IMG/VR virus record: IMGVR_UViG_3300050821_003663
Span: 1 to 64,000 of that record
Direction: 5' to 3' (one strand)
Source: a virus
DNA length: 64,000 nucleotides
In this document: piece by piece, positions 26,030 through 56,563 of the stretch
Layout: every line of letters begins with the position of its first letter
Position numbering within the stretch: position 1 is the stretch's first letter
Notes under the pieces: generated by a model
The model's database searches: none
Told to the model about the DNA's origin: nothing
What the model saw: the letters and a program-made list of their open reading frames with translations, nothing else
Program-made: the position numbers and the translations under genes

Positions 26030-29000
26030 ATGGCCGACGCAGCATTCAGGACATACAACCTCGTCAACCAGTCGAAGGGAATCTCCGCCCGCTACGTCGA
26101 CGATGCCGTCCCCGAATCGGTTTACCTCAACATGGACAACGTGGAGGAGATCGAAGAGAACGCGCTCGCGTCTCGGCTCGGAAGCACGGTCATCAACAAG
26201 GGATCTTTTGGCTTAGCGTTTCCGCTATCAGGATCCGTCTATTCGCTCAACAAACTTGCAGGGTTGAACGGTATCGGATGGAGATACGCCGGTTCGGGAA
26301 CCAACCTATATCGGCGAAACGTGGCGTTCACAGGATCGTACACCGTAATCTCCACTACGATGAGTGGGCAGCCGTGGCAGGGGGTGGTCTATCAGCCAGA
26401 GATCAGCTCTATGCCGTACCTCTTCATCGCCGACCTGGCGGGGATGCTGAAGGATAACGGTTCGTTTACCCCTCCTCAAAACATGGGGATCAAGCAGCCG
26501 CAGTACCCAGTGCTCGCGCAAGCTCAAGCCCCGGACCTGATCGTGCTGGACGACTACGAATCATTGTCCACCGACTACACGTACACCGGCATCTCCGGAG
26601 GGACGGTAGGTCCGAACGTTTTCACTAACACCACATCCAATATCGCCACGCCGGGGATTCAGGAAGTCAACGTCGCAGACCCGAGCCTCATCGCACTGTA
26701 CCAGTACCTCTCCATCGGATCAGAAGCGGTGCTCGTCCTATTTGTAACCGCCACAGGGTTCATCGCGGACTTCCAGTTTCCTCACCCGACTGGATCGGCA
26801 GTAGAAAACCAGCAGCTAAGCTTTGTTGTTCCCCCGAGCACAACCGCGACCGTGAGCAAGTCGTTCGGAGGAACCCCCATATCGGCGTGGCCCACCACGC
26901 TGCAGCTAGAAGACTACATTAGCCTGTTCGTCTTCATCAGCGACCCAACCCAGGTGAAGTCGATCACTTTGAAGTTCGACTGCGGAGACGGAACTTTCGA
27001 GACAGACTACTTCTACCGCGTCATCGCACAAGGCCCGCTGCAGAGCCTTCTGGAGACACAGACAGATCCTACTGTTGCCGCGAGCGATGCGATCATATCC
27101 GAAGCGCTGGATATCTATGGAAGCAATCCCGGAGGGGTAACAGCTCTCAACACCGGACTCAACCAGTGGACTCACATCCTCCTGCAATTGTCGGACTTCG
27201 CCGGCGCGGGACGAGCGGACTTCAACGACCCATCCTTCAACTGGCAGAACGTCAACGGATACCAGGTTGAGATCGTGACTAACGATACTACGGCCGCAAC
27301 CGTTGGCCTGTGCGCCCTCGTCCTCTTTGGGGGAGCTGGTCCGGACAGCTTTGCCGGCGTTGCCTACGACTACCTCTTCACCTTCTACAACGTTGTGGAC
27401 GGCTCGGAATCGAATCCGTGCATGGTGATGACGAACATCAACCCCCCGCTCAATACGAACTGGGTGGTTCCGCGAAGGCAGCCGGTACTCTTGACGCTGA
27501 ATCACCCGATACTAGATCCACAGACCACACACCTACGTGTCTATCGTCGTGGCGGAACGCTGGGCGATAACTACCGTCGCGTCGACCAGATCGTCCCCAC
27601 GGGAACGCAGACACTCTACACGGACCTTTCGTCGGACGTTGATATCGAAGTGGCCGATACCGTGTCGTTCGTGAATGACGTGCCAGTCACCAGTACCCTG
27701 CCAGTGCCCGTAAACACGACTTTGAATGTTGCGCTCACCGCGACCAACCAAGTGCAAACGATTACCCCGGCGAGCATGGCAAATATCTCGGTAGGCCAGC
27801 AGGTGACCATAGGCAACATTGCGCCGGTAGATCTCTTGGACACGTCGGAGATCGTTATTGTGCTCACCAAGACAGGATCGAACTTCACCGCGTTCGTGCA
27901 GAACACGCACGAAGTCGGAGAACTAATCAGCGCAACCGCGCAATACTACCTACCCGTCAACATCATGGCGCAGGCTTACGACCAGATGTGGTTTGCCGGA
28001 GACAAAAATAACCCTGCGTACCTGTACTACAGCGCGAAGGGAGCGCCTCAGAACGTAGGGTCCGATAACTACGTGGCGGTGACTACCCCAGACGACCCGA
28101 TCACCGCAATCGTGCAGATCAAGGGAAACCTGTACGTGTCGACGCGAAAGTTCTGGTGGTCGATTGCACCAGGTACGAATGCAGGGCAGCCGCCCACGGT
28201 ATATCCAACGGCCGCAAAGCATGGATGTGTGGCGCCGAACGGCTACGTACTAACCGAGGAGGGCGTCTACTACCAAGCCATCGACGGCATCCGCTTCTTC
28301 GGAGGAGGAGCATCGGTCTACTTGACCCAAGATCAGGAATTCTTGTTTCAAGACGTGGGGAACACGCCGATCATCGAAGCCAATCCAAACAGCCTCAACC
28401 TGACTGTCGGCGCCTACTGGAACAACATGATCTTCTTCTCCTACGTCGGCACTGACGGGAAGAGGCATCGCCTCATCTTCCACACGGTCTATAAGCGCTG
28501 GCGAAACGATGACGCGGATGCGCAGTCGATCTTCCTCGAAGCTGACACCAACGTGCTCGTCTATGGGACAAGCGATGGCCTCGTGAAGATCGACCGGGTA
28601 GGAACGTGGGACGAGAAGAACGTAGCGGGCACGATCACGCCGACGGCAATTCCAATCAACCTGCAGTGGTCGTACAAAGATCAAGGGATGCCGGCGGAGA
28701 CGAAGATCTATCAGGAGTTCACGCTGGACTGTAACACCAACGGTCAGGACGTGACGCCGGTGCTGATGTTCAACGACGGAGAATTCTTTGAGACTCTGGA
28801 CGTAATCAACACCACAGAGCGCACGCGGTTCAACTTGCCGCTAAATAACGGTCAGGGATTCGTGGCGTACAAAGTATCGCTTGTGTTGACCGGCAATGCG
28901 CTGCAGAGAATCTTCCTCTATCAAGCCTGCATTCGCGCACTACAGCTAGCGAAGACGCGAAAGAGCCTGGACACGTACTACCTCCGCTTCTCCGACGACG

Positions 29001-29293
29001 GCTCGAAGATCTGCAAGAACCTCTTTGTGGAGTACAGCGCGAACGAGGAGATATTCTGCATGATCCAGTACGACGATCCCGCGTACGCACCGTTCACCTT
29101 CACACTGCCAGCGAGCGTAGGAGTCCGCAACCCGATGCGCGTACGGCTGCCGGCCGTAAACTTCCGTTGGCTGCGATTGACGATGATATCGAGCGACGAC
29201 TTCCAGATCTGGAACGAGAGCCGGTTCGAGGTGAAGCCCATCTGTAGCGGCAAGGGATACCAATTCTTCGGTTTGCTCAACGTAGAAACCTAG
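26030..29293 (+). CDS. Tail nozzle/stabilisation protein (P22 gp10/T7 gp12-like)
   Basis: 1087-aa beta-rich protein; LRVYRRGG, LYYSAKG, HGCVAP motifs. Confidence 0.7.
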   Translation: MADAAFRTYNLVNQSKGISARYVDDAVPESVYLNMDNVEEIEENALASRLGSTVINKGSFGLAFPLSGSVYSLNKLAGLNGIGWRYAGSGTNLYRRNVAFTGSYTVISTTMSGQPWQGVVYQPEISSMPYLFIADLAGMLKDNGSFTPPQNMGIKQPQYPVLAQAQAPDLIVLDDYESLSTDYTYTGISGGTVGPNVFTNTTSNIATPGIQEVNVADPSLIALYQYLSIGSEAVLVLFVTATGFIADFQFPHPTGSAVENQQLSFVVPPSTTATVSKSFGGTPISAWPTTLQLEDYISLFVFISDPTQVKSITLKFDCGDGTFETDYFYRVIAQGPLQSLLETQTDPTVAASDAIISEALDIYGSNPGGVTALNTGLNQWTHILLQLSDFAGAGRADFNDPSFNWQNVNGYQVEIVTNDTTAATVGLCALVLFGGAGPDSFAGVAYDYLFTFYNVVDGSESNPCMVMTNINPPLNTNWVVPRRQPVLLTLNHPILDPQTTHLRVYRRGGTLGDNYRRVDQIVPTGTQTLYTDLSSDVDIEVADTVSFVNDVPVTSTLPVPVNTTLNVALTATNQVQTITPASMANISVGQQVTIGNIAPVDLLDTSEIVIVLTKTGSNFTAFVQNTHEVGELISATAQYYLPVNIMAQAYDQMWFAGDKNNPAYLYYSAKGAPQNVGSDNYVAVTTPDDPITAIVQIKGNLYVSTRKFWWSIAPGTNAGQPPTVYPTAAKHGCVAPNGYVLTEEGVYYQAIDGIRFFGGGASVYLTQDQEFLFQDVGNTPIIEANPNSLNLTVGAYWNNMIFFSYVGTDGKRHRLIFHTVYKRWRNDDADAQSIFLEADTNVLVYGTSDGLVKIDRVGTWDEKNVAGTITPTAIPINLQWSYKDQGMPAETKIYQEFTLDCNTNGQDVTPVLMFNDGEFFETLDVINTTERTRFNLPLNNGQGFVAYKVSLVLTGNALQRIFLYQACIRALQLAKTRKSLDTYYLRFSDDGSKICKNLFVEYSANEEIFCMIQYDDPAYAPFTFTLPASVGVRNPMRVRLPAVNFRWLRLTMISSDDFQIWNESRFEVKPICSGKGYQFFGLLNVET

Positions 29294-29322
29294 TTGACAT
29301 GATTTAGCCTACGTGAGACTAT
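29294..29322 (+). promoter_or_regulatory. Promoter of tRNA cluster 1
   Basis: TTGACA-N17-GACTAT with AGCCTACGTG in spacer. Confidence 0.7.
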
Positions 29323-29328
29323 TCGGTC

Positions 29329-29403
29329 ATGCACACGTTACACAGCTCGTATTCACTGTTGTCCTGCCTCAGCGCAGGCGGCGGGGGGTATTGGCCTATG
29401 TAA
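29329..29403 (+). CDS. Attenuator leader peptide 1 MHTLHSSYSLLSCLSAGGGGYWPM
   Basis: ATG 6 nt after -10; codons 6-15 all Ser/Tyr/Leu/Cys, matching downstream tRNAs. Confidence 0.8.
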   Translation: MHTLHSSYSLLSCLSAGGGGYWPM

Positions 29404-29427
29404 CGAGATAGTCCAATCGAGTTCACT

Positions 29428-29458
29428 CCCGCCACCTAAGAATGGCGGGTATTTTTTT
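29428..29458 (+). terminator. Attenuator 1 terminator
   Basis: CCCGCCA-N8-TGGCGGG then TA and T7, ending 2 nt before first tRNA. Confidence 0.85.
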
Positions 29459-29460
29459 GT

Positions 29461-29539
29461 GCGGAGCTAGGAGAATGGCAGATCCGGCCGCCTCAAAAGC
29501 GGTGACTTCCTCTGGGTTCGAGTCCCAGGCTCCGCACCA
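29461..29539 (+). tRNA. tRNA-Leu(CAA), short variable loop
   Basis: Cloverleaf, loop CTCAAAA, ACCA end. Confidence 0.9.
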
Positions 29540-29542
29540 GAT

Positions 29543-29619
29543 GTGGCAGTAGCCAAGACGGAAAGGCGCCGGCCTGCAAAGCTGGTCATGCGGGAGTTCG
29601 ATTCTCCCCTGCCACTCCA
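29543..29619 (+). tRNA. tRNA-Cys(GCA)
   Basis: Loop CTGCAAA, TCCA end. Confidence 0.9.
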
Positions 29620-29633
29620 AGATCTTTGACAAT

Positions 29634-29709
29634 GCGCGTGTGGCCAAACGGCAAAGGCTCCGGATTTAGGCTCCGGGATGTGTGGGTTCGAATCCCACCT
29701 CGCGCACCA
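29634..29709 (+). tRNA. tRNA-Leu(TAG), short variable loop
   Basis: Loop TTTAGGC, ACCA end. Confidence 0.9.
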
Positions 29710-29718
29710 TATTTTCAC

Positions 29719-29808
29719 GGAGAGATGCGTGAACGGTAAAACGGCCGGTTTGCTAAACCGGCGGTCCTAGTGATAGGCCGCGTGGGGTCAGCACCCACTC
29801 TCTCCTCC
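29719..29808 (+). tRNA. tRNA-Ser(GCT)
   Basis: Loop TTGCTAA, long variable arm, atypical T-loop GTCAGCA, ends TCC. Confidence 0.8.
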
Positions 29809-29899
29809 GGAGGGCGCTGCTAGGCTGGTCTGGCAACTGGTCCTGAAAACCAGAGTGTACCCGCAAGGGGCAGGGGTTCGACTCCTCCGCTCTCCTCCA
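29809..29899 (+). tRNA. tRNA-Ser(TGA)
   Basis: Loop CCTGAAA (C33), long variable arm, TCCA end. Confidence 0.85.
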
Positions 29900-29904
29900 A
29901 GATT

Positions 29905-29993
29905 GCCGGTGATGTCCCGTGGGAAGTGGACGCCTGTCCGTAAAACAGAAGCGCCAAAGCGCATTGAGAGTTCGAACCTCTCCACCGGCACCA
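29905..29993 (+). tRNA. tRNA-Tyr(GTA)
   Basis: Loop CCGTAAA (C33), variable arm, ACCA end. Confidence 0.85.
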
Positions 29994-30037
29994 GAAATAA
30001 AGCTTGACCATGTAGGCTAATTGTGAAACCTTGTGAT

Positions 30038-30112
30038 GGCGGGGTAGAGCAGTGGCAGCTCGGGTGGCTCATAACCACCAGGTCGGAGGTTCAAGTCCTT
30101 CCCCCGCAACCA
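30038..30112 (+). tRNA. tRNA-Met(CAT), initiator-like
   Basis: Loop CTCATAA; unpaired G1xA72, A11-U24; only two of the three bottom G-C pairs in the anticodon stem. Confidence 0.8.
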
Positions 30113-30187
30113 TTCGATGTAACACGGGCGGAGGAAGCCAGGGGTAGTACACCCCGCCTCCGCCCAACTATTCTGGGGAGGCAACAC

Positions 30188-30403
30188 ATGGCATTCACCG
30201 AAGCGGAGATTGAAGATCTTTTCACGTACCACGCACCCAAGCCCGGACAGCAGGAGCGCTATCAGGCAATCCGCGAGTCCGCGAAGGGCTTGGCAAAGAC
30301 CATCGTCGCAAACACCCCAGCATCCGCCGATCAATCCGCAGCCATCCGCCATCTTCGTGAGGCAGTGATGACGGCCAACTCCTCAATCGCCTTGGAGAAG
30401 TAA
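30188..30403 (+). CDS. Acb2/Tad1-like helical-hairpin protein (putative immune-signal sponge)
   Basis: FTYHAPKPGQQERYQAIR...LREAVMTANSSIA pattern; GGGGAGG RBS. Confidence 0.7.
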   Translation: MAFTEAEIEDLFTYHAPKPGQQERYQAIRESAKGLAKTIVANTPASADQSAAIRHLREAVMTANSSIALEK

Positions 30404-30414
30404 AAGGAGGCCGC

Positions 30415-30963
30415 GTGAAGCTCATCCTGGTCATAGACAGAGCGCTTCTCTTGGCCTTCAACTGGACGGTTATTTTCTGTATTGAATGGTTCTCATGGAA
30501 TCGCCGGTGGATCGAGCGAGGGTGCATCATCGGATACGTGACGTTCAATGTGGTCCTTTCCGTCGACAACAAATTCGAGCACCACAGTTCCATGATGCTT
30601 TACACGCTACCCTTCACTCTGTTGATTGCCTCCGCGATGTGGGTTATCGAGGGGGACTCCGACACGAAGCGGATGGCAAGGATATGGAGCATGGAATATA
30701 TCGCCGCAAGGGTTGGCTGGTCAGGTATATGCGCAGTCTTTGTTTTCGCATTGCTAGTGGTGGCAGTGGGCGAGCATGGTAGGTATCTAGTCTCGGCGGC
30801 CGCGATGGCATGTCAGTTGACAAGCTACGTCACATACTTGTACCTCATGGCGTTACCGAGGGGCGGAGAGAAGGGCAAGCGCCGGAAGGTCGCGCTCGCG
30901 AAGCTGAAGGAGTGGTTCGGGTCACTGACGTGGCTACCTACTCCGGCAATGGAACCGCAGTAA
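30415..30963 (+). CDS. Multi-pass membrane protein
   Basis: AAGGAGG RBS; 4-5 hydrophobic segments. Confidence 0.7.
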   Translation: MKLILVIDRALLLAFNWTVIFCIEWFSWNRRWIERGCIIGYVTFNVVLSVDNKFEHHSSMMLYTLPFTLLIASAMWVIEGDSDTKRMARIWSMEYIAARVGWSGICAVFVFALLVVAVGEHGRYLVSAAAMACQLTSYVTYLYLMALPRGGEKGKRRKVALAKLKEWFGSLTWLPTPAMEPQ

Positions 30964-30975
30964 CAGGAGGCAACA

Positions 30976-31203
30976 ATGGAACCGCACCAGCAGCGAGTAG
31001 TAGACGAGCTCAAGGAGCTCGAAGTCAAGAGATCTAAACTCGGGAAGTTCATTCAGGAAAACAAAATGTTCAAGACGCTGCCGGCGGCTGAGAAGGAGAG
31101 GCTACGGCGCCAGTTCAGCATTATCATGCAGTACGAGGAAGTCCTCACCGAAAGAATCCGGGCATTCCCCGACAAAAAACTTGACACCAAGAAGAAGTCG
31201 TGA
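30976..31203 (+). CDS. crAss001_48-like helical protein (possible Sequestin-type sponge)
   Basis: MEPHQQRVVDE...KLGKFI...RQ..IMQYEEVLTERIRAF pattern; AGGAGG RBS. Confidence 0.65.
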   Translation: MEPHQQRVVDELKELEVKRSKLGKFIQENKMFKTLPAAEKERLRRQFSIIMQYEEVLTERIRAFPDKKLDTKKKS

Positions 31204-31209
31204 GACTCT
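31181..31209 (+). promoter_or_regulatory. Promoter of tRNA cluster 2
   Basis: TTGACA-N17-GACTCT; shares CGTGAGACT with the cluster 1 promoter. Confidence 0.55.
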
Positions 31210-31219
31210 CCAAAAAGAC

Positions 31220-31318
31220 ATGAAGCATACGCTCACAACGCGATTTACCCCAGCCGCCGCGCAACAGCCGCGTCAGGGTAATTGCGCATCGCATGTGGGC
31301 CGGAGCTTCAGTCGATAA
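31220..31318 (+). CDS. Attenuator leader peptide 2 MKHTLTTRFTPAAAQQPRQGNCASHVGRSFSR
   Basis: 18 of codons 3-21 specify amino acids of cluster 2 tRNAs. Confidence 0.8.
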   Translation: MKHTLTTRFTPAAAQQPRQGNCASHVGRSFSR

Positions 31319-31346
31319 ATTCTATAGACGACGGAAGTAACCAACG

Positions 31347-31376
31347 AAGGCCCACCGAATAACCGGTGGGCCTTTT
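31347..31376 (+). terminator. Attenuator 2 terminator
   Basis: AAGGCCCACCG-N6-CGGTGGGCCTTTT. Confidence 0.8.
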
Positions 31377-31389
31377 CGATGTAAATGAT

Positions 31390-31476
31390 TGGAGCGTGTC
31401 CGGAATGGCATCGGCCTCGGCTGTTAACCGAAGTGCCCGCAAGGGAGTGAAGGTTCGAGTCCTTCCGCTTCAGCCA
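31390..31476 (+). tRNA. tRNA-Asn(GTT) with long variable arm
   Basis: Loop CTGTTAA, GCCA end, extra CCC-GCAA-GGG arm. Confidence 0.8.
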
Positions 31477-31971
31477 AGTAAGTGTTTGTTTTGCGAAGTT
31501 GAGATAGTGAAAGGGAGAAAGTTCTGTTCGCACGGATGCGCGGCTAGATACAACAACAAGGCGTTCCCGAAGAGAAAACCCGAAGGCAAATGCGACGTAT
31601 GTGATGCCCCGGTAAAAAACTGCCTCAAGTATTGCGGTAAAAGCTGTAAGTCTAAGGCAGCTCACCAGCGGATGATGGAGACGATAAAGCAGACGAACGG
31701 TCAAAAAGTAGTTCGCTGGCGGCAACGGACCAAAGTTATAGCGGTAAAGTACAAGGGATCAAAGTGCTGTAGGTGTGGATACGACAGGTGCATAAAGGCC
31801 CTAGACTTCCACCACATTGATCCAGCGAAGAAGGATTTTTCAGTGAGCGGGGTGTCCCGCTCATGGGAGTCAATAAAGGCGGAACTGGATAAGTGCATAC
31901 TGGTTTGCGCAAATTGCCATCGAGAGCTTCACGATGGGATGTGGAACGTAGAAGCCCCGAGCGGGCAGTAG
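31405..31971 (+). CDS. HNH endonuclease with N-terminal Zn fingers (start uncertain, inside tRNA-Asn)
   Basis: CCRCGY...LDFHHIDP...CILVCANCHRELH. Confidence 0.85.
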   Translation: MASASAVNRSARKGVKVRVLPLQPSKCLFCEVEIVKGRKFCSHGCAARYNNKAFPKRKPEGKCDVCDAPVKNCLKYCGKSCKSKAAHQRMMETIKQTNGQKVVRWRQRTKVIAVKYKGSKCCRCGYDRCIKALDFHHIDPAKKDFSVSGVSRSWESIKAELDKCILVCANCHRELHDGMWNVEAPSGQ

Positions 31972-32008
31972 TTGGCAGATGTTTGACAATCGAAACGCAA
32001 GATAATGA

Positions 32009-32083
32009 TCGGGAGTATTTCAACAGGCAGAATCATCGGCTCTGAACCGATAGATGGGGGTTCGACTCCTCTCTCCCGATCCA
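32009..32083 (+). tRNA. tRNA-Gln(CTG)
   Basis: Loop CTCTGAA, U1-A72, TCCA end. Confidence 0.9.
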
Positions 32084-32093
32084 AAATTTTCGA

Positions 32094-32167
32094 TGCGTGA
32101 TCGGCTAACGGTAGGCCGGCGTCCTTTGAAGTCGTCTGTCTAGGTTCGAATCCTAGTCACGCAACCA
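32094..32167 (+). tRNA. tRNA-Gln(TTG)
   Basis: Loop CTTTGAA, U1-A72. Confidence 0.85.
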
Positions 32168-32168
32168 C

Positions 32169-32243
32169 GCGGGGTTCGTATAGTGGCTAGTACGGCGGCC
32201 TGCCAGGTCGCACACGAGAGTTCGAGTCTCTCACCCCGCTCCA
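32169..32243 (+). tRNA. tRNA-Gly(GCC)
   Basis: Loop CTGCCAG, GCG acceptor, TCCA end. Confidence 0.9.
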
Positions 32244-32250
32244 CAAGATT

Positions 32251-32354
32251 CTGTCGTACGCCGAAGATTCACTTTCCAAGGGAGGGCGGAAGCTGACTAG
32301 ATCGGATGCGAGAGGCATCTCGCCCTGACTTCAAAAGGCTCTGACGTACGACGG
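32251..32354 (+). ncRNA. Unassigned structured RNA in tRNA array
   Basis: 10-bp closing stem CTGTCGTACG/CGTACGACGG, inner GGGCG/CGCCC and GATGC/GCATC stems. Confidence 0.55.
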
Positions 32355-32365
32355 ATGCGCAATTC

Positions 32366-32438
32366 GCTGGCATCGTTCAACGGTAGGACGTCGGTTTCGT
32401 ACTCCGAAAATCCGGTTCAAATCCGGTTGCCAGCTCCA
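32366..32438 (+). tRNA. tRNA-Thr(CGT)
   Basis: Loop TTCGTAC, TCCA end. Confidence 0.85.
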
Positions 32439-32468
32439 CATGCGGTACATTCTAGGAAAGGAGGGTCT

Positions 32469-33008
32469 ATGCAGGATGCAACAAAGCAGGTTGTACTTCA
32501 ACTCAATTATTCATTCGAGCCGATGGCATTTTGTAATGTACGTCGTGCTGCGCGTCTTGTCGTAAAGGGCAAGGCTAGAATTATCGAACACGACGGTCGC
32601 GAACTGTCAGCCGGCATCATGTTTCCTGCGGTGATCCGCCTTATGGAGTACCGGCACGTACCTCACAAGATGCAGACGCTATCGCGAAAGAACATTCTGA
32701 TTCGCGACCGCAACCAGTGTCAGTACTGCGGAGAGAGGTTCCAGCCGAGCGAGCTAACCCTTGACCACGTTCACCCGAGATCTAAGGGCGGCTTGAGCAC
32801 CTGGGCGAACCTTGTAGCCTGCTGTGGCCCTTGCAACCGCAAGAAGGGCGACAAGACGGTCGAGGAAGCGGGTCTGATGTTGCTGCATCGTCCACGACCG
32901 ATGACGATCCACACGTCACGGTTCCTGATGCGGTCGATGGGCGTCGACGATCCAAGGTGGAAGAGGTATCTCTACACCGAGTCTGACAAAAAGTACACGC
33001 ACTCATAG
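32469..33008 (+). CDS. HNH endonuclease (McrA-like HNH family)
   Basis: AAAGGAGG RBS; RDRNQCQYCG, TLDHVHPRSKGG, WANLVACCGPCNRKKG. Confidence 0.92.
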   Translation: MQDATKQVVLQLNYSFEPMAFCNVRRAARLVVKGKARIIEHDGRELSAGIMFPAVIRLMEYRHVPHKMQTLSRKNILIRDRNQCQYCGERFQPSELTLDHVHPRSKGGLSTWANLVACCGPCNRKKGDKTVEEAGLMLLHRPRPMTIHTSRFLMRSMGVDDPRWKRYLYTESDKKYTHS

Positions 33009-33073
33009 CTCGAAGCGCGAGCATCCGCATGGTAGGCGGAAGGCGATGGGTTGGATTCCCTCTGAGTGCTCCA
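32999..33073 (+). tRNA. tRNA-Thr(GGT), atypical D/T loops
   Basis: GCACTCA/TGAGTGC acceptor, loop ATGGTAG, TCCA end; overlaps HNH stop. Confidence 0.7.
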
Positions 33074-33078
33074 ACAAT

Positions 33079-33149
33079 GCTGGTAGCCCGAGCGCGGAAC
33101 GCCCCTTGTAAGGCCGTTCTCTCAGGTTCGACTCCTGTTGCCAGCTCCA
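33079..33149 (+). tRNA. tRNA-Thr(TGT), reduced D arm
   Basis: Loop CTTGTAA, normal T loop, TCCA end. Confidence 0.7.
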
Positions 33150-33152
33150 AGT

Positions 33153-33231
33153 GTGACCGTAGCCAAGCCAGGTCTAAGGCGCGTGATTGTGGCTCACGTA
33201 TTCGCGGGTTCAAATCCCGTCGGTCACCCCA
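33153..33231 (+). tRNA. tRNA-His(GTG)
   Basis: Loop TTGTGGC, C73-CCA; T rather than G at -1. Confidence 0.88.
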
Positions 33232-33232
33232 A

Positions 33233-33332
33233 GTGGGGGGATTCGCGGAGGTCGCACGTTCGAATCGTGCCGAAGGCGTTCTAAACACCGCCATCGTAGC
33301 TCAGTGGCAGAGCGCCGCGATTATCCCCCTGC
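33233..33332 (+). ncRNA. Circularly permuted tRNA-like RNA without anticodon
   Basis: T arm precedes D arm, acceptor stem closed by a loop, anticodon stem runs into terminal G/C stem. Confidence 0.75.
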
Positions 33333-33347
33333 AACAATTTCAAATGT

Positions 33348-33421
33348 GGGCCGGTAGCATAACGGGAATGCGTCTCCCTTGCAAGGAGAAAGATGGGGTT
33401 CGACTCCCCCCGTGTCCACCA
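33348..33421 (+). tRNA. tRNA-Ala(TGC)
   Basis: Loop CTTGCAA, G3-U70, ACCA end; imperfect acceptor stem. Confidence 0.8.
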
Positions 33422-33431
33422 ATTTTCAGAA

Positions 33432-33507
33432 GTCCCCGTAGCTCAGACGGTAGAGCGCTGTCCTGAAAAGGCAGGCGTCGTGATCTCGAACATCACCGGG
33501 GGCACCA
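33432..33507 (+). tRNA. tRNA-Phe(GAA)
   Basis: Loop CTGAAAA; T-loop CTCGAAC. Confidence 0.88.
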
Positions 33508-33508
33508 C

Positions 33509-33582
33509 TCGGGTATAGCTGGAAGGTCAAGCCTATGATTTGGGATCATAAGACGTCGGTTCGATTCCGACTACCCGGACCA
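33509..33582 (+). tRNA. tRNA-Pro(TGG)
   Basis: Loop TTTGGGA, G72 A73. Confidence 0.88.
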
Positions 33583-33589
33583 TTTTTAT

Positions 33590-33666
33590 CCACCCGTCGT
33601 CCAATCGGATTAGGGCACGTGGCTACGAACCACGAGACGGAGGTTCGAATCCTTCCGGGTGGACCA
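33590..33666 (+). tRNA. tRNA-Arg(ACG)
   Basis: Loop CTACGAA, ACCA end. Confidence 0.9.
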
Positions 33667-33668
33667 CA

Positions 33669-33697
33669 TTGACAAAACCAGCCTACATGGCTAGGAT
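33669..33697 (+). promoter_or_regulatory. Promoter of Y RNA/Ro60 unit
   Basis: TTGACA-N17-TAGGAT with AGCCTACATG in spacer. Confidence 0.8.
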
Positions 33698-33717
33698 GAT
33701 CTTGCGTTTCGATATTG

Positions 33718-33820
33718 TTCTCCGTTAGTGAAAGTACTCGGTTACTTCATTGCCAATAGCCCCGCAAGGGACTTAATGATTCCCGAAAGGGATAACCGGA
33801 TGCGAATGTTCTACGGGGAA
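33718..33820 (+). ncRNA. Y RNA-like unit 1
   Basis: Closing stem TTCTCCGT/ACGGGGAA; TAGTGAA..CGGTTACTTC..CCG..GTTC core; two GNRA hairpins. Confidence 0.75.
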
Positions 33821-33825
33821 AAGTT

Positions 33826-33940
33826 TGAGACCTGGTGAAAGTTGACGGCTACTTCTTGGTTCGAATCCAAGCCGGAGGCAACTCTGGCTGCCACCAAAAA
33901 ACGGTACGGTGGCTACCCGTTGGCGCAGGTTCCGGTCTCA
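33826..33940 (+). ncRNA. Y RNA-like unit 2 (with T-loop arm)
   Basis: TGAGACC/GGTCTCA stem; TGGTGAA..CGGCTACTTC; TTGG-TTCGAAT-CCAA arm. Confidence 0.75.
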
Positions 33941-33950
33941 GAAAAGATAT

Positions 33951-34013
33951 GAGCCTTAGTGCCGTTACGGATACTTCATGCTAAGAAAACTCCGTAGCAA
34001 TCGTTCTAGGCTC
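33951..34013 (+). ncRNA. Y RNA-like unit 3 (minimal, 63 nt)
   Basis: GAGCCT/AGGCTC stem; TAGTG..CGGATACTTC..CTCCGTAG..GTTC. Confidence 0.7.
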
Positions 34014-34021
34014 TCGATGTT

Positions 34022-34156
34022 GTTCGGGATAGTGAAGTTTACGGATACTTCCCTTTGGCGGACGAGGTCGCAGGTTCGAGCCCTGCCATTCGCTTCGGCG
34101 GATGTAGCTCAGTGGTAGAGCGCGTAAATCTCCGTAGGCGCCTGTTCTTCCCGATC
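34022..34156 (+). ncRNA. yrlA: YrlA-type Y RNA (tRNA mimic)
   Basis: TCGGGA/TCCCGA stem, CGGATACTTC core, T arm then UUCG-closed acceptor then D arm TAGCTCAGTGGTAGAGC; adjacent to Ro60. Confidence 0.85.
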
Positions 34157-34163
34157 TAATACG

Positions 34164-34190
34164 AGAGCCAGACTTCGGTCTGGCTCTTTT
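34164..34190 (+). terminator. Intrinsic terminator between Y RNAs and Ro60
   Basis: AGAGCCAGAC-TTCG-GTCTGGCTCT-TTT. Confidence 0.85.
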
Positions 34191-34214
34191 GCTTTTACCA
34201 AGGAGGGTAAAACG

Positions 34215-35567
34215 ATGCGATCAAACGTTGCAGAAAAGAAGCCATTGCTCTACACCCACGAGGGCGCGGTAGCAGTGTACGCGAGCCCGGAGGACCAGCT
34301 TCGGCGCTCAGTGATGTCCAACATGCTCTTCGAGGATGAATTCTACGAAGACGGCCAGGAGATCTCGAAGCGAATCGAGTCGTCAGTCGCAGAGCTCATC
34401 AAGACTCGCGGCGGAGCGGATACGGTCGCAAACATCGCGTTCGAGGCCCGGACGAAGATGAAGCTGCGTCACGTGCCGTTGCTGTTGCTGGTATCGCTGA
34501 TTCGCGCCAACACGGCCGAGACTCGCGCTATCGTTGCCGGCGCCATCGCACACGTCATACAGCGGCCTGACGAGCTGGGCGAGCTTGTGTCGTTGTTCTG
34601 GAAGCAGAGTGGCGGACGGAAGATGCTGCCGAACCAGATGAAGAAGGGTCTCGCGCTCGCGCTGGACAAGTTCAACGAGTACTCGCTGGCGAAGTACGAC
34701 ATGAGTTCGGCCGCAGTGAAGCTGCGTGACGTGCTCTTCTTGAGCCACGCGAAGCCAGCCGGAGTTGAGAAGGCGGATCTCTACAAGCGCATCGCAGCGA
34801 ACGAGCTGAAGACGCCTGACACCTGGGAGGTTGCTCTCTCGGGCGGAGCGGACAAGAAGGAGACGTTCACTCGTCTTCTGACCGAGGGCAACCTTGGAGC
34901 GCTTGCGCTTCTCCGTAACCTGCGAAACATGACGGAGGCCGGCGTGGAGACGGAAGTCATCCGTGAGGGTCTTGGAAAGATGAAGACCGAGCGGGTACTA
35001 CCTTTCCGGTTCATCACGGCAGCTCGCTACGCGCCATCCTTCGAGCCTCAGCTTGAAGAGGCGATGTTCCGGTGTCTCGCTTCGTTCACGAAGTTTCCCG
35101 GCAAGACGACGCTGTGCATCGACACGTCAGCTTCGATGAGCGCAAAGGTATCCGGCAAGTCGGAGATCAGCCGGCGGGATGCAGCGGCCGCGCTGGCGAT
35201 GATGCTGCGTGAGATCTGCGGTGACTGCGAGGTTATCGCGTTCGGAACGCAAGCGGCTGTTGTTCGGCCACGCCGGGGATTCGCGTTGAACGACGAGATC
35301 GGAAGCGGTCGGTTCGGTCACGGAACCAACATTGGCGAAGCAACGGCGCTGGCAGCAACGAAGGGCTACGACCGCATCATCGTCATCACCGATGAGCAGT
35401 CGGCTACGCCAACGAAGGCTCCGGAGTACGGAACCAAGGGCTACTTCATCAACGTGGCCAGCAACAAGAACGGTATCGGCTATGGCGCCTGGACCCACAT
35501 CGACGGATGGAGCGAAGCAGTCATCGACTACATCGCTCGCTTCGAGGGCCTTGAAGGCGAAGAGTAG
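34215..35567 (+). CDS. rsr: Ro60/TROVE-domain RNA-binding protein
   Basis: THEGAVA, LRHVP, QRPDE, FNEYSLAKY, LRDVLFLSHAKP, ALLRNLRNM, LPFRF; vWA DTSASM, HGTN, ITDEQ, DGWSE. Confidence 0.95.
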   Translation: MRSNVAEKKPLLYTHEGAVAVYASPEDQLRRSVMSNMLFEDEFYEDGQEISKRIESSVAELIKTRGGADTVANIAFEARTKMKLRHVPLLLLVSLIRANTAETRAIVAGAIAHVIQRPDELGELVSLFWKQSGGRKMLPNQMKKGLALALDKFNEYSLAKYDMSSAAVKLRDVLFLSHAKPAGVEKADLYKRIAANELKTPDTWEVALSGGADKKETFTRLLTEGNLGALALLRNLRNMTEAGVETEVIREGLGKMKTERVLPFRFITAARYAPSFEPQLEEAMFRCLASFTKFPGKTTLCIDTSASMSAKVSGKSEISRRDAAAALAMMLREICGDCEVIAFGTQAAVVRPRRGFALNDEIGSGRFGHGTNIGEATALAATKGYDRIIVITDEQSATPTKAPEYGTKGYFINVASNKNGIGYGAWTHIDGWSEAVIDYIARFEGLEGEE

Positions 35568-35568
35568 C

Positions 35569-35603
35569 TTGACACGGTAGTATGCGAGTGCTACCGTGTC
35601 TTT
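35569..35603 (+). promoter_or_regulatory. Overlapping Ro60 terminator hairpin and promoter of tRNA cluster 3
   Basis: GACACGGTAG/CTACCGTGTC hairpin plus TTT; TTGACA-N17-TACCGT with TG extension. Confidence 0.6.
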
Positions 35604-35637
35604 GAAGTCCGATCACTAGGGAGAATCTTTGTAGGCG

Positions 35638-35718
35638 ATGAGACAGACCTTCAAACACGTCGTCATAACCATCACCATTGAAAAGTGGGGGCGGGGAGAT
35701 ATGTGTTTGAGGGTCTGA
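35638..35718 (+). CDS. Attenuator leader peptide 3 MRQTFKHVVITITIEKWGRGDMCLRV
   Basis: 13 of codons 8-22 match cluster 3 tRNAs; 1:2, 2:3, 3:4 pairings visible. Confidence 0.82.
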   Translation: MRQTFKHVVITITIEKWGRGDMCLRV

Positions 35719-35745
35719 TCCATACCATACGTGGTATCACCAGAC

Positions 35746-35768
35746 CCCCTCCAAGTGAGGGGATTTTT
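35746..35768 (+). terminator. Attenuator 3 terminator
   Basis: CCCCTC-CAAGT-GAGGGG-ATTTTT. Confidence 0.8.
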
Positions 35769-35799
35769 ATTGGTCTTTGAAAATTGTAAATATATTTAC

Positions 35800-35874
35800 G
35801 GGAGATTCGTACAGCGGCCAGTACGGCAGATTCCAAACCTGCTTACGAGGGTTCGAGTCCTTCATCTCCCGCCA
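35800..35874 (+). tRNA. tRNA-Trp(CCA)
   Basis: Loop TTCCAAA, GCCA end. Confidence 0.9.
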
Positions 35875-35875
35875 T

Positions 35876-35951
35876 CCCGGTATAGCTCAGTGGTAGAGCG
35901 TCACCCTCATAAGGTGGGGGCCGATTGGTTCGAATCCATCTGCCGGGACCA
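35876..35951 (+). tRNA. tRNA with CAT anticodon (elongator Met or Ile2)
   Basis: Loop CTCATAA, paired 1:72, ACCA end. Confidence 0.85.
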
Positions 35952-35953
35952 GT

Positions 35954-36030
35954 GCGCAGCTAACTCAACTGGCTAGAGTATTCGCCTCTTAAGCGAAAGG
36001 TTCTGGGTTCGATCCCCAGGCTGCGCACCA
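35954..36030 (+). tRNA. tRNA-Lys(CTT)
   Basis: Loop CTCTTAA. Confidence 0.92.
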
Positions 36031-36039
36031 ACAAGTTTC

Positions 36040-36115
36040 GGGAGTGTAACTCAAGAGGAAGAGGACCAGCCTTTTAAGCTGGACGATGAGATTTCGAGTA
36101 TCTCCGCTCCCACCA
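36040..36115 (+). tRNA. tRNA-Lys(TTT)
   Basis: Loop CTTTTAA. Confidence 0.9.
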
Positions 36116-36116
36116 T

Positions 36117-36192
36117 GCACCTGTAGCTCAATTGGATAGAGCGCCGGGCTTCTAACCCGGTGATATGGGTTCGAGTCCCATCGGGCGCTCCA
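36117..36192 (+). tRNA. tRNA-Arg(TCT)
   Basis: Loop CTTCTAA. Confidence 0.9.
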
Positions 36193-36193
36193 C

Positions 36194-36271
36194 GCGGTAA
36201 TCGTCTAGTCTGGCCCAGGACTCCTGCTTTTCACGCAGACAACACGGGTTCGAATCCCGTTTACCGCCCCA
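36194..36271 (+). tRNA. tRNA-Glu(TTC)
   Basis: Loop TTTTCAC. Confidence 0.9.
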
Positions 36272-36276
36272 CATTC

Positions 36277-36350
36277 GCCGTCATCCGCCAAGGGTAAGCG
36301 ACATGATTCTCACTCATGCAATCGGAGCTCGACTCTCCGTGACGGCACCA
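36277..36350 (+). tRNA. tRNA-Glu(CTC)
   Basis: Loop TTCTCAC; T-loop CTCGACT. Confidence 0.85.
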
Positions 36351-36355
36351 CATTC

Positions 36356-36431
36356 GCTCTCCTCGTCCAATCGGATAGGGCACCGGTTTCCTAAACCGTG
36401 AATGGCAGTTCAAATCTGCCGGAGAGCACCA
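36356..36431 (+). tRNA. tRNA-Arg(CCT)
   Basis: Loop TTCCTAA. Confidence 0.9.
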
Positions 36432-36435
36432 TTTT

Positions 36436-36512
36436 GCGCGAGTAGCTCAGTTGGACAGAGCGCTGTCCTCCGAAGGCAGAGGCCGCAGGTTCGACTCCTG
36501 CCTCGCGCACCA
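36436..36512 (+). tRNA. tRNA-Arg(CCG)
   Basis: Loop CTCCGAA. Confidence 0.92.
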
Positions 36513-36517
36513 GTTTT

Positions 36518-36593
36518 GCGGCAGTAGCTTAGTGGTCAGAGTCCCTGATTGTCGATCAGGTTCGCGGGAGTTCGAATCTCCTCTGCCGCGCCA
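36518..36593 (+). tRNA. tRNA-Asp(GTC)
   Basis: Loop TTGTCGA, GCCA end. Confidence 0.9.
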
Positions 36594-36597
36594 CATT

Positions 36598-36678
36598 GCA
36601 AGGTTGGCCGAGTGGTCGATGGCGCCTGTCTTACAAACAGGTTTATCGCCGGGGGTTCGAATCCCTCACCTTGCACCA
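36598..36678 (+). tRNA. tRNA-Val(TAC), atypical body
   Basis: Loop CTTACAA; 3-bp D stem GCC/GGC and 9-nt variable loop. Confidence 0.8.
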
Positions 36679-36682
36679 GTTT

Positions 36683-36759
36683 GGACGTAGAGCTCGGATG
36701 GCATGAGCATTCGCCTGATAAGCGAAAGGCCAGTGGTTCAAGTCCACTTACGTCCACCA
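36683..36759 (+). tRNA. tRNA-Ile(GAT)
   Basis: Loop CTGATAA. Confidence 0.9.
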
Positions 36760-36763
36760 ATTC

Positions 36764-36838
36764 GCGGGGTTAGCTGAGTGGAAAAGCGCTGGCCTTCCAA
36801 GCCGGAGATCGTGAGTTCAATCCTCACACCCCGCTCCA
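36764..36838 (+). tRNA. tRNA-Gly(TCC)
   Basis: Loop CTTCCAA, TCCA end. Confidence 0.9.
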
Positions 36839-36895
36839 CAAAATAATTCAGCCTACACAGGAAACATGCTACTATCGCGAAAAGGTAGCATCGAA

Positions 36896-37675
36896 ATGCC
36901 CCTGAGACACATTAGGAACTTCTTCAAGAGGCCCACAGCGAAGGCATACTGGTGGACGCAGATCGCCAATTTTGGCGATGCGCTCGCACCGCTGCTTCTC
37001 GGCCGGTTCGCCGACCTGGACAACGTCCAATACGCTCCGGTTGGCGAGGCGAACATTGCTTCCGTGGGCTCAATCCTGGAACACATCCCCGCCGGTTGGA
37101 GCGGGTACATCGTCGGCTCAGGCATTCTACGCGAAGAGTCAAAGCTAAAGTTTGACCCCCAGCAAGCCAAGATCCTAGCGCTTCGCGGCCCACTGTCGGC
37201 TCGCGGAATAAAGGGCAGCTTCGCGATAGGAGATCCCGGACTACTCGCCAACGAGCTCGTCGGGATCCAGGAGAAGCAGTGGGACTTGGGAATCGTTCCG
37301 CACTGGCTGGATGACCAGTTAGAAAAAAGGTTCCGCAAGCTGGTTCCAACGAAGTTCACCCTCAAAGTCATCAGCCCGCACAACCACCCCCTCAAGGTCA
37401 TCAGGGAGATAGGCGCTTGCAAGAGAATCGTTACATCATCCCTTCATGGAATGATTGTGGCGGACTCCATCGGCGGCATCCCCCGAAGGGTAGAGGTGTG
37501 CGAAAAGATGAAGAGGGAGGGGGGAACGTTCAAATTCCACGACTACAGCGCTTCGATAAAGACGCCACTTCAGATCGGGAAGATGACCGAGCCGAACTAT
37601 AACCAGGTTGACGACACGAAGAACGAAATCTACGACGCCTACAGAGAGCTCGGCGGGCTATATGGGAAAAATTGA
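36896..37675 (+). CDS. Polysaccharide pyruvyltransferase (ExoV-like)
   Basis: NFGDAL, VGSIL, ALRGPLS, GDPGLL, GIVPH, TSSLHG, FKFHDY. Confidence 0.88.
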   Translation: MPLRHIRNFFKRPTAKAYWWTQIANFGDALAPLLLGRFADLDNVQYAPVGEANIASVGSILEHIPAGWSGYIVGSGILREESKLKFDPQQAKILALRGPLSARGIKGSFAIGDPGLLANELVGIQEKQWDLGIVPHWLDDQLEKRFRKLVPTKFTLKVISPHNHPLKVIREIGACKRIVTSSLHGMIVADSIGGIPRRVEVCEKMKREGGTFKFHDYSASIKTPLQIGKMTEPNYNQVDDTKNEIYDAYRELGGLYGKN

Positions 37676-56055: not shown

Positions 56056-56176
56056 GTAAGTCATTATCAGCCAACATGAAAAATCGCGCCATAAAAAAGC
56101 CTACATGAACGCTTGACACGGAAACGAACAAGTGCAACACTCGTCTTGCTGTTGCAACGAGGGAGAATCTGGGGAA

Positions 56177-56563
56177 ATGGCGAGACATAACAACGGAAAG
56201 AGCTACTTCGCTATTGACGGAGAACGGCTTACAGCCGCCAGAATATCCGCAGGGATGTCGTTACAAGACGTTGCCAATAGGATAAAGTGCAACAAGTCCA
56301 GCGTATCGCGATGGGAGCAGGGAACGCTTTGCCCGTCGGACGAACGAATCTTCATCTTGATGGAAATGTTTGAAGGCGGAGACTTTCTAAGGGAAGGACA
56401 CGCAGCACGGCTGACCTGGAAAGAGGTTGACCGCATTCGCGAGCTCCTCGAAGAGAAGAAACCGCAGGACAGGATCGCAAAGATGTTTGGATTGCCGCTG
56501 GCCACGATCAGCGCTATCGCACGGAACGAAATCTGGAAGAGAGACGAGGTAACCGCCCAATGA
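56177..56563 (+). CDS. XRE-family HTH regulator with second C-terminal HTH
   Basis: ARISAGMSLQDVANRIKCNKSSVSRWEQG; QDRIAKMFGLPLATISAIARNEIW. Confidence 0.85.
   Translation: MARHNNGKSYFAIDGERLTAARISAGMSLQDVANRIKCNKSSVSRWEQGTLCPSDERIFILMEMFEGGDFLREGHAARLTWKEVDRIRELLEEKKPQDRIAKMFGLPLATISAIARNEIWKRDEVTAQ

Follow-up and report, generated by a model that had tools for sequence, protein, structure and literature searches.

A leader reading frame with codons for the downstream tRNAs as part of a probable transcription attenuator of a phage tRNA gene cluster

The leader reading frame of unit 2 and its alternative folds

The virus record IMGVR_UViG_3300050821_003663 is a complete genome of 103,677 bp with terminal repeats, and the window analyzed here comprises its first 64 kb (64,000 nucleotides). 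All tRNA genes of the window lie on the plus strand, as do the features of the leader units and the other cluster genes described below, and they form three clusters (29461-30112, 31390-33666 and 35800-36838). In front of each cluster stands a unit consisting of a short leader open reading frame (ORF) and a predicted terminator, and the genome contains three such units. Our subject is unit 2, which precedes cluster 2 and which had been interpreted, in a reading of the sequence alone by a model (hereafter the sequence-only reading), as a transcription attenuator whose leader lists codons for all 12 tRNAs of that cluster.

Leader ORF 2 (31220-31318) extends from the ATG at 31220 to the TAA at 31316-31318 and comprises 32 codons plus the stop. 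Its codons 3-21 (31226-31282), the putative sensing stretch, specify His, Thr, Arg, Phe, Pro, Ala, Gln, Gly and Asn. We assigned codons to tRNAs twice, by strict wobble rules and by extended rules under which U34 reads whole four-codon boxes. Under strict rules 16 of these 19 codons are read by cluster-2 tRNAs, and this number rises to 18 if the U34 tRNA-Ala reads GCC, leaving CTC as the sole outsider. The claim of the sequence-only reading that all codons of this stretch except CTC belong to cluster 2 was thus borne out, including its remark that GCC requires extended wobble by tRNA-Ala(TGC). All 12 tRNAs of the cluster are represented in the leader (P 0.004-0.006), as had been claimed as well; the count of 12 tRNAs itself needs the qualification that ARAGORN calls only ten of them at default settings.

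Over the whole ORF, 21 to 23 of 31 codons are read by cluster 2, compared with 3 to 5 for clusters 1 and 3. In the long ORFs of the phage itself 37.5-44% of the codons belong to the cluster-2 set, and the enrichment in leader 2 is significant both by a binomial test (P 6e-4) and against in-frame gene windows of the same length (P 0.002); its run of 16 matched codons was equalled by none of 26,545 gene windows. The match is also specific for the reading frame, with 15 and 16 matched codons in the other two frames of the same DNA versus 23 in the frame of the ORF.

The RNA of unit 2 can form mutually exclusive structures. Region 1 (31231-31237, codons 4-6) pairs with region 2 (31294-31301) in the minimum-free-energy fold of the untranslated leader. 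Region 2 includes GTGGGCC at 31295-31301 and repeats the sequence of the terminator 3' arm. Its partner is either region 1 or the terminator 5' arm (region 3), in which GGCCCAC at 31349-31355 is complementary to it. The antiterminator encloses an inner hairpin (31306-31337; 31306-31314 paired with 31329-31337), at whose loop edge the stop codon of leader 2 is located. The predicted intrinsic terminator (31349-31376) has a GC-rich stem of 9 bp (31349-31357 with 31364-31372), a loop of 6 nt and a TTTT tract, and ends 14 nt before the tRNA-Asn gene. The coordinates of the leader ORF, helix and hairpin noticed in the sequence-only reading agree with these data, and the pairing of GTGGGCC with GGCCCAC and the inner helix were recovered in both sequence and folds. 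Calculated folding energies are -19.4 kcal/mol for the terminator hairpin alone, -23.4 kcal/mol for the antiterminator (31292-31358; region 2, inner hairpin and terminator 5' arm) and -41.1 kcal/mol for the untranslated leader, which folds as 1:2 plus 3:4. Terminator and antiterminator compete for a single 5' arm, and the 1:2 pairing excludes the antiterminator.

We modelled the ribosome as a mask of 28 nt that was shifted codon by codon along the leader. When the RNA has been made as far as the terminator loop, the antiterminator holds the terminator 5' arm with a predicted probability of 0.78-0.97 as long as the A site is on codons 1-21. This value drops to 0.64 at codon 22 and 0.34 at codon 23, and lies between 0.24 and 0.5 from codon 23 onwards. 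The loss of the antiterminator (codons 21-23) coincides with the end of the run of matched codons.

Directly before leader ORF 2, and overlapping the stop codon of the upstream gene, stands a promoter-like box (31181-31209) composed of TTGACA (31181-31186), a spacer of 14 nt, TG (31201-31202) and a -10 hexamer (31204-31209). The pattern TTGAC[AC]-N14-TGNNACNNT is found at five sites genome-wide, compared with about 0.1 expected by our own estimate. All five sites are intergenic and on the plus strand (29294, 30004, 31181, 35569 and 56113), and three of them head the three tRNA leaders. Judged from the usual spacing, transcripts would begin at the A of the ATG in leader 1, about 4 nt ahead of the ATG in leader 2 (a 5' untranslated region (UTR) of 3-5 nt), and 34 nt ahead of it in leader 3, where GGGAG lies in between. 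Both the ORF and the box are present in unit 2 and their spacing is kept in four genomes, the near-leaderless start being a prediction only. The two remaining members of this class lie elsewhere. From the box at 30004 the predicted transcript begins at the first base of tRNA-Met (30038), which would thus need no 5' processing; an ORF with an Acb2/Tad1 hairpin domain (anti-CBASS/Thoeris sponge family, PF24729, E 9e-12) follows tRNA-Met on the same predicted transcript (30004-30403). The fifth member, a TTGACA-N14-TGNNACNNT box at 56113-56141, is located ahead of ORFs at 56132-57870.

Sister units and homologues in other phages

Units 1 (leader ORF 29329-29403, terminator 29428-29449) and 3 (leader ORF 35638-35718, terminator 35746-35762) share a common architecture and codon-to-tRNA logic with unit 2. 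Each of the three leaders matches its own tRNA cluster and not the other two. In total 43 of 79 leader codons are read by the respective cluster under strict and 50 of 79 under extended wobble, a total reached by none and by two, respectively, of 200,000 shuffles of the tRNA-to-cluster labels; the five wrong pairings of leaders with clusters yield only 11-31 matches versus 43-50. Unit 1 switches at equilibrium, with a terminator probability of about 0 for codons 5-13 and 0.96 from codon 14, and unit 3 does so in part. In both units the antiterminator is lost where the matched run ends. Unit 2 differs from them in its terminator, which is the strongest of the three and prevails even at equilibrium, in having the longest checklist of codons, and in an ORF that extends across region 2.

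A search with tRNA sequences led to Tunturiibacter phage Tunturi_5, a cultured jumbo phage of 309 kb that infects an acidobacterium. In the paper on this phage 43 tRNAs are counted, and nothing is said on leaders or attenuation (PMC11924767). We found that Tunturi_5 carries tRNAs for the same three amino-acid sets, with a short ORF and a terminator before each set. Its leader ORFs (L071:1657-1755, L071:9723-9836 and L070:7752-7901) have 14 of 31, 24 of 36 and 33 of 48 codons matched by their own clusters, and none of 100,000 label shuffles reached the observed total under strict wobble. Leader B of Tunturi_5 can be aligned with leader 2 at the DNA level, and unit B switches at equilibrium, its antiterminator again being lost where the matched codons end. 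Leader C has been annotated as hypothetical protein gp308. In addition, the second HNH endonuclease of cluster 2 (HNH2) is 46% identical to gp292 of Tunturi_5, and both genes are located between tRNA-Thr(CGT) and tRNA-Thr(GGT).

A profile search with this HNH endonuclease yielded four metagenome contigs with the same tRNA island, and homologues of leader 2 were located on three of these contigs (L091:700-774, L093:3522-3596 and L094:3096-3167). These three units have TTGACA and a hexamer at a distance of 17 nt, an ATG 10-11 nt after the hexamer, in agreement with the window, and a terminator 0-15 nt before tRNA-Asn, which is the first tRNA of the homologous cluster in these contigs as in Tunturi_5. 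ORFs starting at the position of leader 2 are kept in four homologous units. On L093 all three leaders are present, and none of 50,000 label shuffles reached their total. The position of the inner hairpin also forms a hairpin in the three contigs, whose leader ORFs (ATG to TAG or TAA) end just before region 2. In the window, an insertion of 7 nt (31282-31300, after the conserved Pro-Arg-Gln-Gly codons) shifts the frame of leader 2; because the stop codon of the relatives is thereby lost, leader ORF 2 is nine codons longer than its homologues and ends inside the antiterminator.

The arms of the terminator and of the region-2/antiterminator helix differ between genomes, with both pairings kept. 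Complementarity was read sequence by sequence from the folds, because MAFFT left the terminators of five homologues out of register. The codons show a corresponding pattern for two tRNAs that belong to different clusters in different genomes. In the window, tRNA-Arg(ACG) belongs to cluster 2 and reads three CGN codons of leader 2 and none of leader 3; its counterpart in Tunturi_5 is part of cluster C, and leader C contains seven CGC codons, leader B one CGT. Likewise, tRNA-Asp belongs to cluster 3 of the window, and GAT occurs in leader 3 only; on L091 and L093 it is found in cluster 1, and leader 1 of L093 has two Asp codons. In the sequences compared, the codons follow the relocated tRNAs to the matching leader.

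A distant phage (L036) represents an unrelated case. A strong promoter, an ORF of 14 codons with Pro-Gln-Pro-Gln-Pro, a duplicated terminator arm and a terminator precede genes for tRNA-Pro(GGG), tRNA-Pro(CGG) and tRNA-Gln(TTG), and the predicted terminator probability falls to 0.05-0.27 only with the A site on codons 6-12. This unit, too, switches at equilibrium in the model, and its antiterminator disappears where the matched codons end. In a 348-kb phage, an ORF of 39 codons with 19 different amino acids is followed by a strong terminator (L057:1464-1660), and 22 nt further on come three genes for tRNA-Ala and a large array of tRNAs; this locus is at most a doubtful candidate, as its fold scan gave no clear switch and only 4 of its 39 codons are Ala codons. 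Other searches were negative: the design was not found in the tRNA regions of G004 and G005, Megablast of the tRNA region against phage records retrieved no close relatives, and viral contigs scanned at the pattern and protein level for the neighbouring genes, the terminator sequence and a leader motif gave nothing useful. Relatives of HNH2 in viral contigs lie outside tRNA islands.

The genes of cluster 2 and their surroundings

The first gene that unit 2 would control is tRNA-Asn(GTT) (31390-31476; 87 nt, 36.8 bits), which has a long extra arm that is unusual for tRNA-Asn. It is followed by the gene for a first HNH endonuclease, HNH1 (31486-31971; phrog_2255, E 1e-27), whose start is uncertain, as its open frame extends back through tRNA-Asn, where an in-frame ATG lies at about 31405. 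HNH1 is absent at the corresponding place in the relatives and looks like a later insertion. The segment 32009-32438 carries tRNA-Gln(CTG), tRNA-Gln(TTG), tRNA-Gly(GCC), a structured non-tRNA RNA of 122 nt (32244-32365) and tRNA-Thr(CGT). The 122-nt RNA, situated between tRNA-Gly and tRNA-Thr, is predicted to fold into a long irregular hairpin (-43.4 kcal/mol, z -2.5), and no Rfam family matched it. HNH2 (32469-33008) contains the Pfam domain HNH_5 (E 1.5e-15) and has a strong Shine-Dalgarno sequence. The last segment (32999-33666) comprises tRNA-Thr(GGT), a tRNA-Thr(TGT)-like gene, tRNA-His, a YrlA-like tRNA mimic (33230-33343, below the Rfam cut-off), tRNA-Ala(TGC), tRNA-Phe, tRNA-Pro(TGG) and tRNA-Arg(ACG). 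The tRNA-Thr(GGT) gene was called only at a lowered ARAGORN threshold and scores 37 bits with Rfam.

The consensus scan listed no plus-strand promoter-like or terminator-like site within 31390-33666. The simplest reading of this region is a single transcript that would comprise the 12 tRNAs, both HNH genes, the 122-nt RNA and the YrlA-like mimic. The two HNH genes noted in the sequence-only reading were confirmed (phrog_2255 and Pfam HNH_5), and the internal promoters that it had named as a possible refutation were not seen in the scan. A TTGACA box at 31983 was considered as an internal promoter and rejected, as it falls outside the class of five promoters and is accompanied by no plausible -10 element, although it still counts as a caveat. 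Boxes of the form TTTGA(C/A)AA lie 8-27 nt upstream of tRNA-Leu(TAG), tRNA-Gln(CTG) and tRNA-Trp and are conserved across related phages (29625-29632, 31982-31989 and 35776-35783 in the window; L070:~7993, L071:~10110, L093:~2889 and ~5423, and L094:~5172 in the relatives). They may serve as signals for processing or binding.

Terminators also stand behind the genes that precede each of the three clusters. The gene directly upstream of leader 2 (30976-31203) is a member of a crAss001_48-related family (PF21825). Downstream of cluster 2, a promoter-like site (TTGACA-17-TAGGAT) at 33669 and a strong terminator (34163-34188) are followed by a gene for a Ro60/TROVE protein (34215-35567). Matches to YrlA-like (Y RNA-like) RNAs were obtained within 33230-33343 and 33669-35567 (38.5 and 34.8 bits, below the cut-off of Rfam); together, these elements look like a phage Ro-Y RNA module between clusters 2 and 3. 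Farther downstream, 42905-54031 is a single ORF of 3,708 codons.

Probable attenuation, rival explanations and known systems

Taken together, we consider it probable that tRNA cluster 2 is gated by unit 2 through ribosome-mediated transcription attenuation. This is the interpretation put forward in the sequence-only reading, and it is supported in silico, as the sequence-level predictions of an attenuator held for the promoter-like box directly before the ORF, the codon match with the own cluster, the 5' arm common to terminator and antiterminator, the two sister units, and the homologous units in four other phage genomes. Host RNA polymerase would start at the TTGACA/extended -10 box, a few bases before the ATG, and a ribosome would translate the leader of 32 codons, sampling in codons 3-21 the codons of the 12 downstream tRNAs. 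If an aminoacyl-tRNA of this set is scarce, the ribosome would linger within codons 3-21, covering region 1 and leaving region 2 free. Region 2 and the inner hairpin would then capture the terminator 5' arm as it emerges, and polymerase would read through into tRNA-Asn and the whole cluster, which would also yield both HNH genes and the two other small RNAs. With fast decoding, the ribosome would move over region 2 and the inner hairpin, the 3:4 pairing would form, and transcription would stop at about position 31376. If the leader is not translated at all, regions 1 and 2 would pair and the terminator would likewise form. In this way the unit would exert negative feedback on how much of one particular tRNA set is supplied, with units 1 and 3 acting likewise for the other two sets.

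Several observations weigh against this interpretation. Eight to ten of the 31 codons of leader 2 lie outside the cluster-2 set, and one of the presumed tRNA-Thr genes, Thr(TGT) (33077-33150), is divergent and was called by neither ARAGORN nor Rfam; it aligns with Thr(TGT) at the same place in the relatives and is short of 2 nt in the anticodon stem. No Shine-Dalgarno sequence precedes the ATG of leader 2, so that translation would be of the leaderless type and depend on the predicted 5' UTR of 3-5 nt. The U tract of the terminator comprises only four T, a shortness to which the sequence-only reading had rightly pointed; for this reason termination may be weak, and for the same reason the consensus scan did not list 31349-31376. 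At equilibrium, with the 3' arm present, the terminator of unit 2 forms with a probability of about 1.0 at every ribosome position. Since the terminator always wins under these conditions, the switch in unit 2 must, according to the model, be kinetic and could operate only through the order of folding. Dependence on folding order is common among attenuators. In the units of L091, L093 and L094 the antiterminator helix is short, at about 6 bp, and no discrimination is seen in the equilibrium scan; the two leaders of L094 taken together are not significant (P about 0.1). Leaders are absent from L003, L002 and G004 despite a similar tRNA order or a related Ro60 gene, and a crude enrichment screen of 65 Ro60-based loci, most of which do not have the design, performed no better than its reverse-strand control. 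As phages that share the Ro60 gene or the tRNA order lack leaders, the design is lineage-restricted and dispensable. Finally, a conserved TTTGACAA box lies 20 nt before tRNA-Gln(CTG) and may belong to an internal promoter, although no -10 element fits it; Tunturi_5 has this box before the same tRNA, and several genomes have it before tRNA-Leu(TAG) and tRNA-Trp.

Part of this evidence could also be accommodated by a leader that is translated and tunes termination but reports general translation capacity, amino-acid starvation or the coupling of transcription and translation rather than these tRNAs, the codon match merely biasing its response. Lack of a tRNA and lack of an amino acid stall a ribosome alike, any one matched codon is present just one to three times so that a single shortage need not cause a long stall, and the dominance of the terminator at all ribosome positions at equilibrium suggests that timing may outweigh position. 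A general sensor, however, needs neither three leaders that each match their own cluster nor codons that track tRNA-Arg(ACG) and tRNA-Asp between clusters, and we regard this explanation as improbable.

Two further explanations, which dispense with attenuation altogether, seem even less likely to us. If the hairpin were an ordinary terminator or insulator for upstream transcription and the ORF were untranslated, the tRNAs would owe their expression to leaky readthrough or to a promoter that escaped recognition, the TTTGACAA boxes being one candidate site. The terminators behind the genes upstream of all three clusters, the missing Shine-Dalgarno sequence, the short U tract and the conservation of the TTTGACAA box before tRNA-Gln, tRNA-Leu and tRNA-Trp are in line with such an arrangement. 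It would leave unexplained, however, the codon match (0 of 200,000 shuffles) and its frame specificity, the conserved ATG 10-11 nt after the promoter box, the duplicated terminator arm, and the covariation of codons and tRNAs; moreover, the TTTGACAA boxes are too near to the tRNA 5' ends (8-27 nt) for a sigma-70-type start upstream of the tRNA and are thus not ordinary promoters of this type. Equally unlikely is a reading in which the unit only happens to adjoin the tRNAs and encodes a small RNA or a peptide of 32 residues with a function of its own. The promoter-like box and terminator of the unit would delimit a product of about 160 nt, and the annotation of leader C of Tunturi_5 as a protein gene would fit. 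Against this stand the poor conservation of the peptides in all but their membership of the matched amino-acid set, the maintenance of the unit in the window even though its ORF is frame-shifted at the 3' end with respect to the homologues, and the position of the terminator, which is found 0-15 nt from the first tRNA in four of five homologous units and at about 90 nt in Tunturi_5; as the terminator adjoins the first tRNA in this way, the tRNAs would have no promoter of their own.

If unit 2 acts as an attenuator, its leader would read the decoding speed of exactly those codons that are served by the downstream genes. Attenuation would then explain why the tRNAs of these phages are sorted into amino-acid sets and would provide a signature in the sequence by which tRNA regulons could be recognized in further phages; the units would also offer compact, modular sensors of codon-specific translation speed. 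The idea is open to direct tests in Tunturi_5, where homologous units occur and whose host, Tunturiibacter psychrotolerans X4BP1, is in culture. Phage tRNA genes are generally viewed either as a constant supplement that suits codon usage or as a source of substitutes for tRNAs that host defences have cleaved, and to our knowledge how their expression is set has been little studied. A more far-reaching, and doubtful, possibility is that the three units form a portable tRNA island with codon sensors, which splits the code into three self-regulating sets, is common to otherwise dissimilar phages of Acidobacteriota (a 104-kb phage, a 309-kb jumbo myovirus and metagenomic relatives), and serves mainly as counter-defence. 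Depletion of tRNAs by anticodon nucleases or tRNA turnover, caused by the host or by infection, might then stall ribosomes and thereby switch on exactly the replacement set.

The closest parallels are leader-peptide attenuators of amino-acid operons, such as trpL, hisL, pheL and leuL and the multivalent thr (Thr/Ile) and ilvGMEDA (Ile/Leu/Val) leaders of enterobacteria. Unit 2 resembles them in a short ORF rich in the relevant codons behind a promoter-like box, in its predicted 1:2, 2:3 and 3:4 pairings, in the predicted intrinsic terminator before the first controlled gene, and in the proposed readthrough upon ribosome stalling. In E. coli, the pheM leader attenuates pheST, which encodes phenylalanyl-tRNA synthetase, according to the level of charged tRNA; part of the translation apparatus is thereby adjusted by a leader peptide, as proposed for unit 2. 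A single amino acid is sensed and a synthetase is controlled in that case, whereas unit 2 would sense many amino acids and control tRNA genes themselves. T-box riboswitches are similar in that the status of a tRNA decides between terminator and antiterminator before genes for aminoacylation or amino-acid supply. In contrast to the presumably translated ORF of unit 2, a T-box binds uncharged tRNA directly, through its specifier codon and the T-box sequence, and needs no ribosome; a cmscan search of 28500-37500 with E values up to 1 detected no T-box or Rfam leader family, only tRNAs, YrlA-like matches and matches at chance level. Full-text literature searches found no paper on leader-peptide attenuation of tRNA genes, and as far as our searches show, a closed feedback loop on tRNA supply would be a new use of classical attenuation. 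Unit 2 further differs from the attenuators of amino-acid operons in that it is phage-borne, lacks a Shine-Dalgarno sequence and has a predicted near-leaderless start, and in that it precedes tRNA genes and not biosynthetic enzymes. Whereas the leaders of amino-acid operons contain runs of codons for one to three amino acids, leader 2 covers nine amino acids and 12 tRNAs with one to three codons each, and, unlike those operon attenuators, the three phage units divide the whole code among them.

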